Below are positions 2,195-37,192 of a stretch of DNA of 44,307 bases, piece after piece. The notes below the pieces were generated by a model. It was given only the letters and a program-made list of their open reading frames with translations, was not told where the DNA came from and ran no database searches. The DNA is taken from the UHGV virus genome UHGV-0213691. The stretch is one strand, 5' to 3'. A program made the position numbers and the translations under genes. The DNA comes from a virus. Numbering within the stretch: position 1 is the stretch's first letter; the number at the start of each line of letters is the position of its first letter.

Positions 2195-3615
2195 TTTTTA
2201 CCTCGTCTCTTCATGTAATTAAGCAACTCTTCCTGTACCGATTTCTTCTCGTCTGTACGCGCGGCGACAACCTCGTCCAGCGTGTCTTTAGCAACGATGT
2301 GGTACAGGAACACTGGTCGCTCGTGGCCTGCCTGTTTCTGGCGGACCGGGCCTATACGCTCGACAACCTGCAAATAGTGCTCAAGGTTCCAGCCTTGCGA
2401 AATAAACGCCAGATGATGTCCCCCATCCTGTAAATTCAAACCATGCCCGGCTGACGCAGGGTGGACGCACAAGATTTCGATTTCACCACGGTTCCACGCT
2501 TCCATCTGCTTATTACCCTTAGCCCCTTTGGCAAACGCCTGCGCCTGCGGGAATCGCTTAAGGATGCGCTCCAGTTCATGCTTGAACTGATAGGCCACCA
2601 GCAACGGTGCGCCCTGTAACTCCTCAACAATCGACTCCAGCGCGTCCAGTTTCGTATCGTGCACTTTCTCCCAGTCTTTCGTTGCTTCGCCGTCCGGCCC
2701 CGATACATACACGGCACCGGACGCAATCTGTAGGCACTTCGACGTCTTCGCCGCCGCATTAGCCGCTTCAACTTCCCCGCTCTCCAGTTCCGCGAATAAC
2801 TTCTCCTCCATATCGATGTACGCCTGACGTGCTTTCTTCGGCAGGTCGATTTCAACCGGCACAATAATCGGCGCTTCACACCCGAACCACTCGGCGGCGT
2901 CAATCGTAAGACTGATGTCCTTCATTTTCTGATGAATCTCATTATCCGCACCTGGTCGTGCGTGATACTCCCGCGCCATAGCTGACTTACCTTTCTGTAT
3001 CGAGTTAAACCAGCGGTCGGTGAATGCCGTGTAGGAAGAACCGAGTCGCTCGCCCGCGTCGATAAACCAGTTCTGGCCCCACAAGTCTTTGAGGCCGTTT
3101 GGCGACGGTGTACCTGTCAGGTTGATGAAACGCTTAACTTTACCGAACGCCACTTTACTAAGCGCCTTTGCTCTCTTGCTACCGCCTGAACGGCTGCGGA
3201 ACGATTTAAGCTTCGTGCTCTCATCAGCAACGATAACCGTAAAAGGCCAGTCGTCTTTGCCGTAGTAGTCAATCAACCACTCGATAACTTCGTAGTTCGT
3301 ACACACCACGTTAGCGTCAGACTCCAGCGCCGCGATGCGGCGTTTCTCTGAACCTGTTGCATCGACGACACGCAGACATGGGAACCGCCATTTCTCTTGT
3401 TCAGCGGGCCATGTACCGGATGCAACGCGCAGCGGGGCCAGGATTAACACTCGGTCGTCGTCATTAAGTTGCCCATTACGGAACAGTCGGTTTAAGGCCC
3501 ACAGTACGCTGCCAGTCTTCCCGGCGCCCATGCTTGCCCATATGTTGCAGCGATGGTGTCGCAACATGAACGAGGTCATGAGTTTCTGGTACTCGCGTCT
3601 TTGAAACTTACTCAT
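2191..3615 (-). CDS. SNF2/DEAD-like family helicase
   Basis: 474 aa; Walker A GAGKTG, DEAH-like VADESTK, ILAPLRVASGTW and LTGTPSPNGLKDLWGQ motifs. Confidence 0.85.
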   Translation of the reverse strand: MSKFQRREYQKLMTSFMLRHHRCNIWASMGAGKTGSVLWALNRLFRNGQLNDDDRVLILAPLRVASGTWPAEQEKWRFPCLRVVDATGSEKRRIAALESDANVVCTNYEVIEWLIDYYGKDDWPFTVIVADESTKLKSFRSRSGGSKRAKALSKVAFGKVKRFINLTGTPSPNGLKDLWGQNWFIDAGERLGSSYTAFTDRWFNSIQKGKSAMAREYHARPGADNEIHQKMKDISLTIDAAEWFGCEAPIIVPVEIDLPKKARQAYIDMEEKLFAELESGEVEAANAAAKTSKCLQIASGAVYVSGPDGEATKDWEKVHDTKLDALESIVEELQGAPLLVAYQFKHELERILKRFPQAQAFAKGAKGNKQMEAWNRGEIEILCVHPASAGHGLNLQDGGHHLAFISQGWNLEHYLQVVERIGPVRQKQAGHERPVFLYHIVAKDTLDEVVAARTDEKKSVQEELLNYMKRRGKK

Positions 3616-4537
3616 TTACCGCCCCCATGAACGCCTTTATAAATTCAGCGGCTACTTGCGGGACGATGGCATTGCCATAACCGCGCAATCGTCCCACTCT
3701 GGCGGGTATCCCATTAGCCAGCGGGAATGTGCCGGGTTCAACTGGCCGGAACTTTCCATCACGGCATCCGAGCCAGTCAGCATCTGACCAGAAGCCGTGA
3801 TGCGAATTGGTTGTGTTATTTTCAGACCCTGCTCCGTCGAGTAGTCCAGCCTGTCGAATGTCCTGTCCTTCCCGTCCTTGCGAATACCTGTCTTTCCGCT
3901 CCCCATGTAGTCGTTCGCTGTCGGTGTAGGCCAAGCCGCCAACGCGGCAGCCCATCCCAGTTTGTTCGGTTTCGTCCTGCCGTCTGTGCTGCGCATGTTC
4001 GCGTCGTTTGTTATCAGTGATACCGCCGGTGTGGGCCAGTCTGTGCGCGCCGAAGAAAAGTCTGTCGCGTTTGTGTGGCGCGCCGACGCTACAAGCTGGG
4101 AGTACCGCAAACCCGACGGCGTAGCCTTCTCCCTCCAGGTGAGTTTGTAAGTCGCACATCCACGATTTTGCAATTGCTGGCGCAACCTGTTCACCAAAGA
4201 GGACTGGAGGGCAGCACTCGCTGATGAGGTCAAGGAATACGGGCGCGAGGTGTCTTGGGTCGAACTGTCCGAGTTGCTTTCCTGCCGCGCTAAACGGTTG
4301 GCAAGGCGGGCTTCCCGTCCAGAGAGGCGTATCTTCCGAAACTCCCGCAAGTCTGAGCGCGAGAGGCCAGCCGCCGATACCAGCGAAAAAATGACACTGG
4401 GTGAACCCGTCGAGGTCTTCAGGTTTAACTTCGGTAATGCTTCTTTCATCTACAATTCCAAAAGGTATGTGACCCTGCTTTATTAATTCACGCAGCCACG
4501 CGGCTGCGCCTTTATCCCACTCATTGTAATAGTTCAT
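3608..4537 (-). CDS. DNA (cytosine-5)-methyltransferase-like protein, compact
   Basis: 309 aa; motif I FAGIGG, motif IV PPCQPFS (PCQ Cys), FGEQV (ENV-like), HKRDRLFF (RxR), GNAIVPQV; only about 20 aa between motifs I and IV. Confidence 0.6.
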   Translation of the reverse strand: MNYYNEWDKGAAAWLRELIKQGHIPFGIVDERSITEVKPEDLDGFTQCHFFAGIGGWPLALRLAGVSEDTPLWTGSPPCQPFSAAGKQLGQFDPRHLAPVFLDLISECCPPVLFGEQVAPAIAKSWMCDLQTHLEGEGYAVGFAVLPACSVGAPHKRDRLFFGAHRLAHTGGITDNKRREHAQHRRQDETEQTGMGCRVGGLAYTDSERLHGERKDRYSQGREGQDIRQAGLLDGAGSENNTTNSHHGFWSDADWLGCRDGKFRPVEPGTFPLANGIPARVGRLRGYGNAIVPQVAAEFIKAFMGAVNE

Positions 4538-8411: not shown

Positions 8412-8440
8412 ACTATAATAGTTAACTATTCAGGTGTCAA
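8412..8440 (-). promoter_or_regulatory. Sigma70-like promoter (TTGACA-17-TATAGT) with perfect palindrome AATAGTTAACTATT (8417-8430)
   Basis: Consensus -35, 17-bp spacer, operator overlapping spacer and -10; upstream of SSB-like gene. Confidence 0.55.
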
Positions 8441-11371: not shown

Positions 11372-11400
11372 ACTATAATAGCGAACTATTCACTTGTCAA
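11372..11400 (-). promoter_or_regulatory. Leftward early promoter (TTGACA-17-TATAGT) with operator AATAGCGAACTATT (11377-11390)
   Basis: Consensus -35, 17-bp spacer; in divergent control region. Confidence 0.6.
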
Positions 11401-11464
11401 TGGGCTTTTCTAAAATAATTAATATGGTACTATTCACATATCAACTGACTAAGGAGTAATCGAC
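11401..11464 (+). promoter_or_regulatory. Rightward promoter/operator region for the HTH gene (degenerate operator AATATGGTACTATT 11421-11434; RBS AAGGAG)
   Basis: TACTAT -10-like hexamer at 11428-11433 but no clear -35; strong RBS 11451-11456. Confidence 0.35.
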
Positions 11465-14855: not shown

Positions 14856-14884
14856 TTGCACACCCCAACATAATAGGATACTAT
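14856..14884 (+). promoter_or_regulatory. Rightward promoter (TTGCAC-17-TACTAT) with operator AATAGGATACTATT (14872-14885)
   Basis: 33-bp block TTGCACACCCCAACATAATAGGATACTATTCAC, near-identical to promoters at 27937-27965 and 37164-37192. Confidence 0.6.
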
Positions 14885-14918
14885 TCACTTATCGAAACGA
14901 GACAGAGGAGTGGGTGTT

Positions 14919-16206: not shown

Positions 16207-16235
16207 TTGCACACTAAGATAGAATAGGCTACTAT
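16207..16235 (+). promoter_or_regulatory. Rightward promoter (TTGCAC-17-TACTAT) with operator AATAGGCTACTATT (16223-16236)
   Basis: Same architecture as 14856-14884. Confidence 0.55.
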
Positions 16236-16266
16236 TCATATACACAGATGAGGGGAGAGACAGAAG

Positions 16267-24567: not shown

Positions 24568-24572
24568 AGAAA

Positions 24573-24600
24573 AGGCCCCATAAGGGGCCTTAGACTTTTC
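24573..24600. terminator. Bidirectional intrinsic terminator
   Basis: AGGCCCC-ATAA-GGGGCCT hairpin; T-rich on minus side, TTTTCC on plus side. Confidence 0.65.
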
Positions 24601-24904
24601 CTATTAGTTTTTTAATTCTATCGCGTTCCATTCTTTTTCCTTCCTCTACACCCTCATTGAAGTATCTTTCTGCATCTTCATCGTTGGACTTACGAACTGC
24701 GGCACCCTCTCTATATAGCTCTTGATTGTCGCGCAATACCTTAATCTTAGCTATTATTTCGTTAAAAGGTGCGTCAGCACGTATTTTAAGCATAGACCTT
24801 ACCTGCTCTACGAACCAAGCAAAATTAGGCTTTTTTGCTAATTTATCTCTTAAAACAGCGTTCTCTTGTTCCGCTTTTGTGGCGCGAGCACGATAATCAA
24901 TCAT
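24590..24904 (-). CDS. Reverse-oriented moron: hypothetical charged protein (104 aa)
   Basis: ATG with GAGAGG RBS; own promoter and terminator; AT-richer than flanks. Confidence 0.5.
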   Translation of the reverse strand: MIDYRARATKAEQENAVLRDKLAKKPNFAWFVEQVRSMLKIRADAPFNEIIAKIKVLRDNQELYREGAAVRKSNDEDAERYFNEGVEEGKRMERDRIKKLIGKV

Positions 24905-24946
24905 TTTAGTAAACCTCTCTTTCCGTTCAATAGCACCTATACGTGA

Positions 24947-24975
24947 ATAGTACCCTATTATACTGGTGTCTGCAA
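24947..24975 (-). promoter_or_regulatory. Moron promoter (TTGCAG-17-TACTAT) with operator AATAGTACCCTATT (24946-24959)
   Basis: Same conserved architecture as 27937-27965 and 37164-37192. Confidence 0.55.
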
Positions 24976-25019
24976 ATATTATTTTTATGCGTTACACTGT
25001 CGATACGACAGGAGGGCTT

Positions 25020-26524: not shown

Positions 26525-26527
26525 TAA

Positions 26528-26554
26528 AAGGCCCCGTTAAGGGGCCTTAGTTTT
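26528..26554. terminator. Bidirectional intrinsic terminator
   Basis: AAGGCCCC-GTTAA-GGGGCCTT followed by AGTTTT. Confidence 0.7.
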
Positions 26555-27271
26555 AAGTAACCATTCCGTTACTGTAGGGGGTTTAACCATTTCTATGGTG
26601 TGCCTCATTATAGCGGTTCGATGTAGTTTGTCTGTTATGTTAGGTAGTCTTGCTTTAGTTTTTGGCACATTTATAGCTACGTTTGTACTGTCAGCGCTGT
26701 CGAAAGGATAACGGCTTAGAGCCCTCCCATCCAGCATTCTAAGGCCATGGAGTTTTACATCCAATTTTCTGTTTCTATAAACCGCATTAAACGCCTGGTC
26801 CATTCTTTTCTCCCATGACTTAGACCGTATGGCCCTGTGCGGTCCGCAGCAACCTATCGCTACCCGATTGAACCCACGGCACAGCTTTACTAGTCTTCTT
26901 ATGCTTTCGTCACTGTGCCACACCGGGACTGCCTTAGACCTTAACCAATCTGGGACAGTTTCTATTAATGCGTCGTTCTCTTCCTCCGTGCCCTCTATAA
27001 CGTCCGGTATAATGAACCACTCAATACGACTGAACCACTCTCCGACAAAATCATAATATCCTGCCCAATGGGCGCTCCAGTCTATGTTGTCAGGTGCTTT
27101 CTTCCATGTCGAAAAAGCTCCGTTGTCCAACACTAATTTACATCTCAAGGCGGCGATTTTTTGTATTTGGTCAGGGCGGGCATATGACACCAGAGCGCCA
27201 CCCCCACGGTACAATGCTTTTATAAGCTCATCCCCACCCCAAATAGGACCCCCGTGGTAATGCACCGTCAT
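26537..27271 (-). CDS. dpdA: tRNA-guanine-transglycosylase-fold protein, DpdA-like (candidate 7-deazaguanine DNA transglycosylase)
   Basis: 244 aa; VLDNGAFS resembles the TGT substrate-Asp motif (L)TDSGGFQ; FDSADSTNVA resembles the TGT catalytic region DMFDCVxPTRNA; no C-terminal CxCxxC-H zinc subdomain; ATGA-coupled to upstream transporter gene. Confidence 0.5.
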   Translation of the reverse strand: MTVHYHGGPIWGGDELIKALYRGGGALVSYARPDQIQKIAALRCKLVLDNGAFSTWKKAPDNIDWSAHWAGYYDFVGEWFSRIEWFIIPDVIEGTEEENDALIETVPDWLRSKAVPVWHSDESIRRLVKLCRGFNRVAIGCCGPHRAIRSKSWEKRMDQAFNAVYRNRKLDVKLHGLRMLDGRALSRYPFDSADSTNVAINVPKTKARLPNITDKLHRTAIMRHTIEMVKPPTVTEWLLKTKAP

Positions 27272-27732
27272 TTAATTTTCCTCAACAAGAAAGACCACAA
27301 AGCTCCGCCAAAAACCTTAGCCGCGAATTGGCCCAGTACGACTAGCGGCATGAAAGAACCGAAAGCTATTAGTGGGAAAATAAAAGAGTCCGCCGCCGAG
27401 GCCGCGGTATTACTTACATTTGACTTAACTAGCCACTTTTTATTGATTAGTGCCTGGTAAACAACGGCATCCAGGATGGCAGCACAAGCGAAGGCAACAA
27501 CGCTTGCCACAGCAATCTTTCCGGTTGCCGGGTTTATGGAGAAACTTATAATGCCAGCTACTAGTATCAGTATGAATATTTTTTGTACGCCAATCCTCTC
27601 GTGCAACTTATCTCTTATTACGAAATCAAGCCCAATAAGTAGAAAGGCATTTACCGGTGTCGCTAACGGACCAAACACAGTTACCGAAAAGTTAGCAGCG
27701 CATATCGCCGCTACGTAAATTGCATACATCAT
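27268..27732 (-). CDS. Polytopic membrane protein, YhhQ/VUT-family-like (candidate queuosine-precursor transporter)
   Basis: 154 aa, several hydrophobic helices; GLDFVIRDKLHERIG, AAILDAVVYQALI and SAADSFIFPLIAF resemble remembered YhhQ motifs. Confidence 0.4.
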   Translation of the reverse strand: MMYAIYVAAICAANFSVTVFGPLATPVNAFLLIGLDFVIRDKLHERIGVQKIFILILVAGIISFSINPATGKIAVASVVAFACAAILDAVVYQALINKKWLVKSNVSNTAASAADSFIFPLIAFGSFMPLVVLGQFAAKVFGGALWSFLLRKIK

Positions 27733-27733
27733 A

Positions 27734-27895
27734 TTAGCGCCCCCAGTTACGGGCAGCGTTTGCCACTAGTGCAATCGTTTCTTCGAAAATGTAGTCAAGT
27801 TTAACAATCTGACGCATTTTACGGCGGAACTTACGTTTGTCCCCATTTTTCGAACTTAAATTAGTATTTACGGTAATTCTTTTTGCTAATTTCAT
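27734..27895 (-). CDS. Small basic protein (53 aa), first gene of moron operon
   Basis: Not in track; ATG with GGGAG RBS; stop 1 nt before transporter ATG. Confidence 0.3.
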   Translation of the reverse strand: MKLAKRITVNTNLSSKNGDKRKFRRKMRQIVKLDYIFEETIALVANAARNWGR

Positions 27896-27936
27896 TTTCC
27901 ATCTCCCATTTAAGTTAACATTGTTGGTGTAAGTGA

Positions 27937-27965
27937 ATAGTACCCTATTATGTTGGGGTGTGCAA
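27937..27965 (-). promoter_or_regulatory. Moron promoter (TTGCAC-17-TACTAT) with operator AATAGTACCCTATT (27936-27949)
   Basis: 33-bp block identical to the promoter at 14856-14884 except one base. Confidence 0.6.
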
Positions 27966-28017
27966 ACTATTTATTAACCTATTCCAGTTATTCCACCGAA
28001 TTGTAAATGTTAGAATA

Positions 28018-28240: not shown

Positions 28241-28266
28241 GCCCCGCTTTATGGCGGGGCTTTACT
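28241..28266 (+). terminator. Leader terminator/attenuator upstream of spanin and capsid genes
   Basis: GCCCCGC-TTTATG-GCGGGGC followed by TTTACTT; about 180 nt downstream of promoter; RBS AAGGAG follows. Confidence 0.45.
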
Positions 28267-28284: not shown

Positions 28285-28671
28285 ATGAATCTTAACGCAA
28301 CTGTCGTAGCAGGAGCATGTTTCATCATCCTGTTATACGCACACGGCTACTATCAATACCGCATCGGCTGGAACGAAGGCCGGGCGAATCTCGTTTCTCA
28401 GCAACAGCAGAAAGCACAGGCTGAGTTAGCGAAGAAAACACAACGGCAGCAGCAGGATGAATCTAAGGCCGCCGCCGCTGACAACGAAGGCAAGACGAAA
28501 TCAGAGGTGATTACCCGTGAAGTCGTTAAATACATTAAAACGCCTGGTCGCAGCGTGTGCACTTTCGATGATGCTCGCGTCATGCTCAAGTCCCGCGCCG
28601 TCGCAAACGCCAATTCCATCCCCGGATACGACGATGATGCAGCCGCCGTGCAAACTGGCACCACCAAGTAG
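28285..28671 (+). CDS. i-spanin (Rz-like)
   Basis: 128 aa; N-terminal TM (VVAGACFIILLYAHG), Q/K/E-rich periplasmic coiled coil; o-spanin gene embedded at 3' end. Confidence 0.6.
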   Translation: MNLNATVVAGACFIILLYAHGYYQYRIGWNEGRANLVSQQQQKAQAELAKKTQRQQQDESKAAAADNEGKTKSEVITREVVKYIKTPGRSVCTFDDARVMLKSRAVANANSIPGYDDDAAAVQTGTTK

Positions 28672-28780
28672 TGACGCTGACGAGGATTTAGCTATCGACG
28701 TCCAGAACGCCGAATGTGTACGGCAACTGAGACTGAAAGTGTTCATGCTGCAGGATTACGTGAGGAATATTCTGGAATAG
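28517..28780 (+). CDS. o-spanin (Rz1-like lipoprotein), overlapping i-spanin in +1 frame
   Basis: 87 aa; signal peptide with lipobox LASC, then Pro-rich SSPAPSQTPIPSP; GTG start with GAGGTGA RBS. Confidence 0.55.
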   Translation: MKSLNTLKRLVAACALSMMLASCSSPAPSQTPIPSPDTTMMQPPCKLAPPSSDADEDLAIDVQNAECVRQLRLKVFMLQDYVRNILE

Positions 28781-35362: not shown

Positions 35363-35386
35363 AAGGCCCCTTTCGGGGCCTTTTCT
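35363..35386. terminator. Bidirectional intrinsic terminator
   Basis: AAGGCCCC-TTTC-GGGGCCTT followed by TTTC; A-run upstream. Confidence 0.75.
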
Positions 35387-35616
35387 TACTCGTCAATGTT
35401 ACTTCGGTATTCCCGTAACTTCTCGAGACTTTCGATTGCTTCCGCTAAGTCTGTTCCGGTGTCTTTGTGGCCTCGCAAGCCCATGCACAATAGCTTCTTC
35501 AATGCGTGCTGTAACGCCGGGTCCCGGATATCGAAGGCGCGCAGCACATCGTAGACGTCTACTGTCATAGTGCTGCCGTGAGTGTTTGTCATTGTTCGGT
35601 TGTATTTTGAAGTCAT
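35386..35616 (-). CDS. Hypothetical protein (76 aa), last gene of reverse island
   Basis: ATG overlaps phosphoesterase stop (ATGA); MTVDVYDVLRAFDIRDPALQHALKKLL. Confidence 0.45.
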   Translation of the reverse strand: MTSKYNRTMTNTHGSTMTVDVYDVLRAFDIRDPALQHALKKLLCMGLRGHKDTGTDLAEAIESLEKLREYRSNIDE

Positions 35617-37135: not shown

Positions 37136-37163
37136 AATTATTTCCTCAGTAAGTTACAGGTGA

Positions 37164-37192
37164 ATAGTACCCTATTATATTGGGGTGTGCAA
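37164..37192 (-). promoter_or_regulatory. Island promoter (TTGCAC-17-TACTAT) with operator AATAGTACCCTATT (37163-37176)
   Basis: TTGCACACCCCAATATAATAGGGTACTATTCAC, near-identical to promoters at 14856 and 27937. Confidence 0.6.

Follow-up and report, generated by a model that had tools for sequence, protein, structure and literature searches.

What a small leftward gene island is doing among the rightward structural genes of an Escherichia coli phage is the question raised by UHGV-0213691, a genome-sized stretch of viral DNA of 44,307 nucleotides that we refer to as the window and in which all coordinates below are given. The window belongs to a Kagunavirus (Guernseyvirinae), a type of E. coli phage, and the island, which sits inside the head-gene region, encodes a basic protein of 53 residues, a membrane protein of 154 residues from the VUT/YhhQ family and a DpdA-family transglycosylase of 244 residues. 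We consider it rather probable, if well short of certain, that the phage has gained a small mobile cassette of three genes, in which a DpdA that inserts 7-deazaguanine bases into DNA is combined with a miniature importer of the YhhQ type.

All three genes lie on the minus strand. The basic open reading frame (ORF; 27734-27895) is the first gene of the cassette and has no function assigned by homology. It is followed by vut (27268-27732), which encodes a minimal six-helix VUT/YhhQ-family protein and putative importer of 7-deazaguanine precursors, and by dpdA (26537-27271), whose product is a bare TIM barrel without Zn subdomain from the singleton DpdA clade of gamma-proteobacterial phages. An earlier reading of the letters alone, below called the sequence-only reading, had described three leftward ORFs of 53, 154 and 244 codons and had taken them for a small basic ORF, a YhhQ-like gene and a gene for an enzyme resembling tRNA-guanine transglycosylase (TGT) and DpdA. 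The ORFs are found exactly where it had placed them and the identities are correct. It had furthermore proposed that the genes are translationally coupled, and this is in agreement with the junctions, since the stop codon of the small ORF is only 1 nt ahead of the vut ATG and the vut stop and dpdA start share an ATGA overlap.

The DpdA-family protein

The 244-residue protein matches the family phrog_887, labelled 'queuine tRNA-ribosyltransferase' (E 4.6e-84), and gp35 of phage CAjan, the DpdA whose deletion abolishes dPreQ0 (PMC7544227), falls in the same family (E 8.2e-96). A tblastn search with CAjan DpdA as query likewise finds this ORF in the window (E 7.6e-5), and hhalign aligns the family profile to CAjan DpdA with a probability of 98.75% (E 1.4e-16), thereby pairing LDNGAFS with LDSGAFS and SADST with SCDSS. 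The motifs VLDNGAF and FDSADS, which the sequence-only reading had likened to the two catalytic aspartate regions of TGT, are indeed present, and their aspartates D49 and D194 are, together with D90, H119 and H175, invariant in all of 65 family representatives clustered at 50% identity. The spacing D49-x3-F53 is furthermore that of D95-x3-F99 in bacterial DpdA, an enzyme that cannot do without D95 and D256 in catalysis and whose base-reading residues are D130 and H181 (PMC10164549). Structure prediction had been proposed as a check on the assignment, and the AlphaFold2 model, with a predicted local distance difference test score (pLDDT) of 90, is a beta/alpha barrel that has the TGT-type (beta/alpha)8 fold.

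The closest phage homologues are those of PEAT2 (67% identity), HK106 (65%), 7-11 (61%) and MED16 (42%), and by sequence the protein belongs to the gamma-proteobacterial clade of singleton DpdA proteins described by Hutinet 2019. Pfam and NCBIfam returned nothing for it, no TGT match was obtained when the 65 family members were scanned against Pfam, and neither phmmer nor an hmmsearch with the family profile gave a relevant match among PDB sequences. The sequence-only reading had regarded the lack of a match to PF01702 as sufficient to dismiss the assignment, but such a criterion is unsafe: PF01702 does miss this protein, yet the empty search is not decisive because CAjan DpdA, which has been validated genetically, is likewise without a Pfam match. 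Aligning the family profile to one E. coli TGT sequence with hhalign gave a probability of 0.5%, for which the single-sequence template is probably to blame.

The VUT protein and its linkage to DpdA

The 154-residue protein had been claimed to be a YhhQ-like transporter, with PF02592 named as the model to search, and Pfam Vut_1 (PF02592) indeed recognizes it with 39.9 bits, above the cut-off of 27.2 bits (E 6.8e-10). It also matches phrog_4899, as do E. coli YhhQ (E 2.4e-37) and CAjan gp41, the latter annotated as 'putative preQ0 transporter', and its alignment covers the full YhhQ with deletions in loops only. The AlphaFold2 model has six helices (pLDDT 90), and the only significant structure matches to this model in BFVD are VUT proteins, the top three with TM-scores of 0.62-0.69. 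No sequence relative of the protein was found in the PDB.

The gene is rarely found without dpdA. This VUT occurs in 15 records of GenBank phages, and in 14 of them it abuts a DpdA homologue; pairs are thus seen in PEAT2, Tbat1_6, ECO111 5-P, AB3P2, LHE71, Lg3, Phc, RCIP0319 and the Phleasolo group. In the remaining record, mEp013 (locus L010, 2468-3741), a VUT homologue of 28% identity overlaps a DNA methyltransferase gene (phrog_757) and not dpdA. Linkage was furthermore counted for the 80 best VUT loci in IMG/VR. In 71 of them the same-strand neighbour of VUT is an ORF of the DpdA family, with VUT preceding DpdA in 38 of these pairs and following it in 33. Seven more loci have DpdA 224-488 nt away, which brings the number with DpdA within 500 nt to 78 and leaves two without. 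In Tbat1_6 and ECO111 5-P the VUT is 69-72% identical to that of the window whereas the adjacent DpdA is just about 42% identical, which argues that the genes of the pair have recombined between lineages.

Genes for making the base do not accompany the pair. When FolE, QueD, QueC and QueE of CAjan were used as tblastn queries against the window, all matches had E > 0.5, in agreement with the sequence-only reading, which had reported folE, queC, queD and queE to be absent, and phmmer searches with the same proteins found none of the four within 4 kb of the IMG/VR VUT loci. The remaining genome is collinear with that of the Kagunavirus Bas70, itself without preQ0 synthesis genes.

A cassette in exchangeable slots

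The head genes flanking the island match 487 GenBank phages with up to 93% identity, and none of these covers more than 70% of the query segment 24900-29600 because the island is missing from all of them. In blastn comparisons with phiWAO78-1 and Bas70, homology ends at about 26555-26566 and picks up again at about 27921-27930, and between these points lies the acquired island (26567-27920, minus strand), a stretch of about 1.35 kb without homology in these related Kagunaviruses. The island has 45% GC against 53-54% in its flanks. The moron-like placement that had been claimed for it holds up. In phiWAO78-1 and Bas70 the same slot contains unrelated small leftward genes, encoding 83 and 67 residues respectively, and has the terminator and the promoter element of the window at its two ends.

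A paralogous slot (slot 1, 24570-24976, minus strand) lies between the portal and MuF-like genes and is made up of a terminator at 24570-24593, a promoter element at 24940-24976 and the cargo between them. Its flanks closely resemble those of the slot that holds the cassette (slot 2, 26527-27966), since the terminators are 83% and the promoter elements 86% identical. The cargo of slot 1 in the window is a leftward ORF of 104 codons with 39% GC (24590-24904), which is not in Bas70 and has no Pfam match, and which is another moron under the same type of promoter.

The cassette itself was found in two metagenomic Kagunavirus-like contigs. In one of them, L004, it occupies slot 2 as in the window and its DpdA is 95% identical, whereas in the other, L029 (IMGVR_UViG_3300045988_039442), it occupies slot 1, with identities of 97.5% for DpdA, 94% for VUT and 98% for the small ORF, and slot 2 has only about 200 nt between its terminator and promoter elements. 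The presence of the cassette in slot 2 of two genomes and slot 1 of a third, between shared flanking repeats, marks it on sequence grounds as mobile cargo that shifts between slots bounded by promoter and terminator, and it suggests that cargo may be exchanged through recombination in the short flanks. The three copies have diverged to a dS of 0.17-0.33 with dN/dS in the range of 0.04-0.08 (dpdA) and 0.08-0.19 (vut) and not above 0.04 in the small ORF, and these low ratios across three diverged copies show that all three are real genes under purifying selection.

This applies also to the 53-residue protein, for which neither Pfam nor NCBIfam gave a match. Its ORF has a good Shine-Dalgarno sequence, read straight from the letters. 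The copies in L004 and L029 are conserved to 98%, with 5-9 synonymous changes to 0-1 non-synonymous ones, and in Flyfo siphovirus Tbat1_6 a homologue of 53% identity immediately precedes vut-dpdA. The small ORFs that precede VUT in LHE71, RCIP0319, Phleasolo and mEp013 are not homologous to it, and the ORF is missing from the other phages that carry the pair. The notion that the ORF is a remnant of a gene that resided in the slot was considered and rejected, since in both Tbat1_6 and L029 it accompanies the cassette and since purifying selection acts on it.

Promoter element and terminator

The left boundary of the slot is formed by a GC-rich hairpin at 26528-26548, AAGGCCCC-GTTAA-GGGGCCTT, which has the dpdA stop codon in its loop and is kept in relatives without the island; its second copy is the terminator of slot 1. 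A bidirectional terminator had been claimed here, and the hairpin does score as terminator-like on both strands. The right boundary is a promoter-like element on the minus strand (27934-27965) with the layout TTGCAC-N17-TACTAT, which holds the 18-nt core TGAATAGTACCCTATTAT and is retained in relatives with other cargo. The promoter proposed by the sequence-only reading at 27937-27965 agrees with 7 of the 12 consensus positions, or with 8 of 12 if the -35 element is taken as TTTGCA with an 18-nt spacer, and as the threshold of the promoter scan was 9 of 12, it is not listed by the scan in either reading. The claim that the cassette has its own promoter nonetheless holds up. The core TGAATAGTACCCTATTAT recurs 8 times in the window, where chance would give 0.04 occurrences, with five copies on the minus strand (8415-8432, 11375-11392, 11419-11436, 14870-14887 and 16221-16238) and three on the plus strand (24944-24961, 27934-27951 and 37161-37178), and five of the eight have the TTGCAC-N17-TACTAT layout in common. 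The core contains the inverted repeat AATAG-N4-CTATT, and judged by these features it is probably an early or middle promoter of the phage, or a promoter and operator combined. Each of the plus-strand copies (24944, 27934 and 37161) heads a leftward gene island within the rightward structural genes, from which we infer that the cassette would be expressed together with non-structural genes.

Proposed function and alternatives

The island may be understood as a horizontally acquired, self-contained cassette of a 'salvage type' for 7-deazaguanine modification of DNA. Its three coupled genes would be transcribed from a phage promoter like those at the head of other leftward non-structural islands, and the miniature VUT, placed in the inner membrane, would make more of a queuosine-precursor base available in the cell, be it preQ0 or a closely related base like ADG or preQ1, thus adding imported base to the supply that the E. 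coli host makes through FolE, QueD, QueE and QueC. DpdA, as a stripped-down TGT-type TIM barrel, would then swap selected guanines of the phage DNA for this base after replication. In this exchange D194 would be the nucleophile, D49 would serve as general acid/base, and the base would be read by D90 and a conserved histidine. The modification is expected to be sparse, that is well below 1% of G and probably detected as dADG or dPreQ0, because synthesis genes are missing and because it is sparse in the related phages 7-11 and MED16 as well. Between phages and between the two slots, the cassette would move by recombination in the conserved terminator and promoter flanks. The virion DNA of 7-11 and MED16 contains dADG (PMC6884629, PMC8306585), and host preQ0 can feed a phage DpdA, as folE and queC mutants of CAjan keep modification at a level about 12-fold lower (PMC7544227). 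That such a salvage-type module is the whole explanation of the island seems to us probable, though not strongly so.

A number of observations weigh against this account. Only 50 residues follow D194 in the 244-residue protein, which therefore lacks the subdomain that contains Zn in TGT and bacterial DpdA; nor was a conserved Cys/His cluster found in the DpdA family, where C141 and C142 are Ser in many relatives, and hidden Markov models connect the protein neither to Pfam TGT nor to a sequence in the PDB. The VUT protein does not reach the NCBIfam equivalog cut-offs, with 29.8 against 50.95 bits for TIGR00697 and 24.2 against 252 bits for PRK11212, and it is therefore best described as a short subfamily with a presumed rather than an assigned substrate. 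In CAjan, where synthesis genes are present, deletion of yhhQ leaves the modification unaffected (PMC7544227). Bacterial DpdA requires the ATPase DpdB (PMC10164549), and the cassette has no such partner unless the 53-residue protein helps; neither DpdB nor DpdC is among the three genes of the island, and no targeted search for them was made in the rest of the window. The island likewise contains neither a preQ1 riboswitch nor another element known to Rfam, which gave sub-threshold noise only. As for the relatives, dADG amounts to only 0.02% of G in 7-11 and 0.13% in MED16, MED16 DNA is cut by the tested enzymes with G-containing sites and shows no visible protection from restriction, and no dADG is found in Orion, whose host is without preQ0 synthesis (PMC6884629, PMC8306585). 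The sequence-only reading had taken evasion of restriction to be the pay-off of the module, and this is doubtful because the characterized relatives carry traces of dADG only and MED16 DNA is cut.

The low level of modification is also a reason to consider that the singleton DpdA may have diverged in function, so that a TGT-type barrel with an imported base serves some purpose other than bulk anti-restriction, by writing sparse site-specific marks that mimic a Dpd-type self-mark of the host, by inserting a different base or by working against defences or in regulation in the manner of a DNA glycosylase. We regard this as rather unlikely. The dADG levels of 7-11 and MED16 are comparable to those reached by bacterial DpdA, which are below 0.1% of G (PMC10516641), the DNA of MED16 is unprotected, and Hutinet 2019 explicitly leaves room for functional divergence of singleton DpdA proteins; the lacking Zn subdomain, the missing link between the clade and Pfam TGT and the mEp013 homologue of VUT that adjoins a DNA methyltransferase point the same way. 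The residues of catalytic type are however all invariant, the tight linkage to a transporter of the queuosine-precursor type points to a 7-deazaguanine substrate, and the island is without dpd-type restriction genes or other partners. A more specific and speculative proposal, which we consider unlikely, is that the short VUT and the singleton DpdA make up an obligate two-component salvage system, their linkage in viral contigs being about 97%, with which phages devoid of biosynthesis genes would write sparse and sequence-specific marks from an imported base, perhaps ADG or another precursor rather than preQ0. Its purpose would differ from classical anti-restriction and could for instance be to escape defences that are Dpd-like or that sense modification. 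The cassette would then pass as a plug-in from slot to slot, and the conserved basic 53-residue protein might take the place of DpdB as a DNA-targeting or activating cofactor.

The cassette could also be a recently gained passenger that is barely or not at all active in this host and is kept only because the slot accepts any cargo. Unrelated small genes do occupy the slot in relatives, the island is absent from the 487 related GenBank phages, yhhQ is dispensable in CAjan (PMC7544227), and DpdA has a C-terminal tail that reaches into the terminator and falls short of that in PEAT2-like homologues. Such a notion is however in poor agreement with the strong purifying selection on all three genes (dN/dS at most 0.19), with intact frames and conserved ATGA coupling, and with the maintenance of the pair in two slots and in many phage lineages, and we find it quite improbable. 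Slightly more improbable still is a function in host queuosine and tRNA metabolism, in which the pair would import queuosine precursors and modify host tRNA, or sequester the precursors, and thereby tune translation. The TGT superfamily does classically consist of tRNA enzymes, annotation pipelines label the protein 'queuine tRNA-ribosyltransferase', and Hutinet 2019 proposes that phages with queuosine-pathway genes and no DpdA may boost queuosine for translation. The bare barrel of 244 residues is nevertheless without the Zn and C-terminal tRNA-binding modules of TGT and ArcTGT, the nearest validated homologues act on DNA, as seen for CAjan and from the dADG of 7-11 and MED16, and E. coli already has TGT and YhhQ of its own. 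Furthermore, no tRNA genes, which were sought as possible TGT substrates, were found in the phage.

Relation to known systems

Several parts of the island have precedents. Phages with DpdA and no preQ0 genes are the largest group, with 76 of 182 phages, and phage YhhQ homologues were noted in the same study as correlating with no group (Hutinet 2019, PMC6884629). The CAjan cluster includes a yhhQ of 159 codons (PMC7544227), and RefSeq names the PEAT2 pair 'VUT family protein' and 'queuine tRNA-ribosyltransferase'. DpdA-only phages, phage YhhQ homologues and the annotated pair of PEAT2 are thus already known, and with 78 of 80 VUT loci linked to DpdA, the pairing is less unusual than the sequence-only reading had made it. 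What is new is the first occurrence of such a cassette in a Kagunavirus, the nearly constant linkage of a short VUT to DpdA in viral contigs without synthesis genes, and the presence of one cassette in two alternative slots with the same short terminator and promoter flanks.

The DpdA of the window is of the same clade as those of the singleton DpdA phages that form the 'third group' of Hutinet 2019, such as 7-11, MED16 and HK106, none of which has genes for preQ0 or G+ synthesis, so that these phages, like that of the window, would all depend on a precursor from the host or from outside. In the window, by contrast, the gene is coupled to VUT and the 53-codon ORF, and it is located in the head-gene region, not the early or replication part, of a Kagunavirus, a genus whose 487 GenBank relatives have no DpdA. 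The 15 GenBank records with a match to the VUT of the window do not include 7-11, HK106 or MED16, and no VUT is annotated beside the dpdA of HK106. The closest published pair is that of the Pectobacterium phage PEAT2, in which VUT is 73% and DpdA 67% identical and the genes overlap in the same order. In PEAT2 and in PEAT2-like metagenomic phages the pair is however found downstream of the primase in a rightward replication module, the 53-codon ORF is missing, and DpdA has a longer C-terminus (256-262 residues in total). Tbat1_6 has the same three genes, i.e. the 53-codon ORF, VUT and DpdA, in a reverse-oriented island that lies among packaging and head genes, between terL and the portal gene, but its phage backbone is different and, with VUT 72% identical, its DpdA is only 42% identical.

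The clusters of CAjan and 9g (Queuovirinae) combine a DpdA that inserts preQ0 with a short YhhQ homologue of 159 residues, both in the same PHROGs as the proteins of the window. These phages encode FolE, QueD, QueE and either QueC or Gat-QueC, and 25-32% of their G is modified, whereas the window has no synthesis genes, and their DpdA1 is only about 22% identical to the DpdA described here. The bacterial DpdA of S. Montevideo (PDB 7UI4) is likewise different, being 413 residues long with a large Zn-containing insertion and requiring the DpdB ATPase. E. coli YhhQ has 221 residues, compared to the 154 of the phage VUT with its trimmed loops and scores below the NCBIfam equivalog thresholds.

Other features of the window

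An ORF of 76 codons at 35386-35616 on the minus strand resembles part of CAjan gp40 (tblastn E 9e-12), a gene without assigned function within the 7-deazaguanine cluster of CAjan. It was considered as a further member of the system and rejected, since it is conserved in Kagunaviruses without the island (Bas70_0022), and it is probably unrelated to the cassette. The phage has a second DNA-modification gene (3608-4537, minus strand), also found in other Kagunaviruses, whose product is by its match to Pfam DNA_methylase (E 2.2e-16) a C-5 cytosine DNA methyltransferase. The head-gene block also contains, within 28285-28780, an Rz-like i-spanin gene (28285-28671), the 3' part of which is overlapped by a possible o-spanin frame, and a strong terminator-like hairpin of 8 pairs, 7 of them GC, lies at 28241-28260 between the cassette promoter and the spanin start.

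Implications

The present locus extends the genes for 7-deazaguanine DNA modification to Kagunavirus (Guernseyvirinae), that is to small and genetically tractable E. coli phages, and phages of this type are otherwise highly sensitive to restriction-modification systems (PMC11990801). Nearly isogenic relatives without the cassette, and one relative with the cassette in the other slot, provide natural controls. The phage thus offers a clean system for the question posed by Hutinet 2019, namely what role a singleton DpdA plays and whether a phage YhhQ matters when biosynthesis genes are missing. Finally, slots in which the same terminator and promoter surround exchangeable cargo would constitute a simple route by which morons may move within and between phages.

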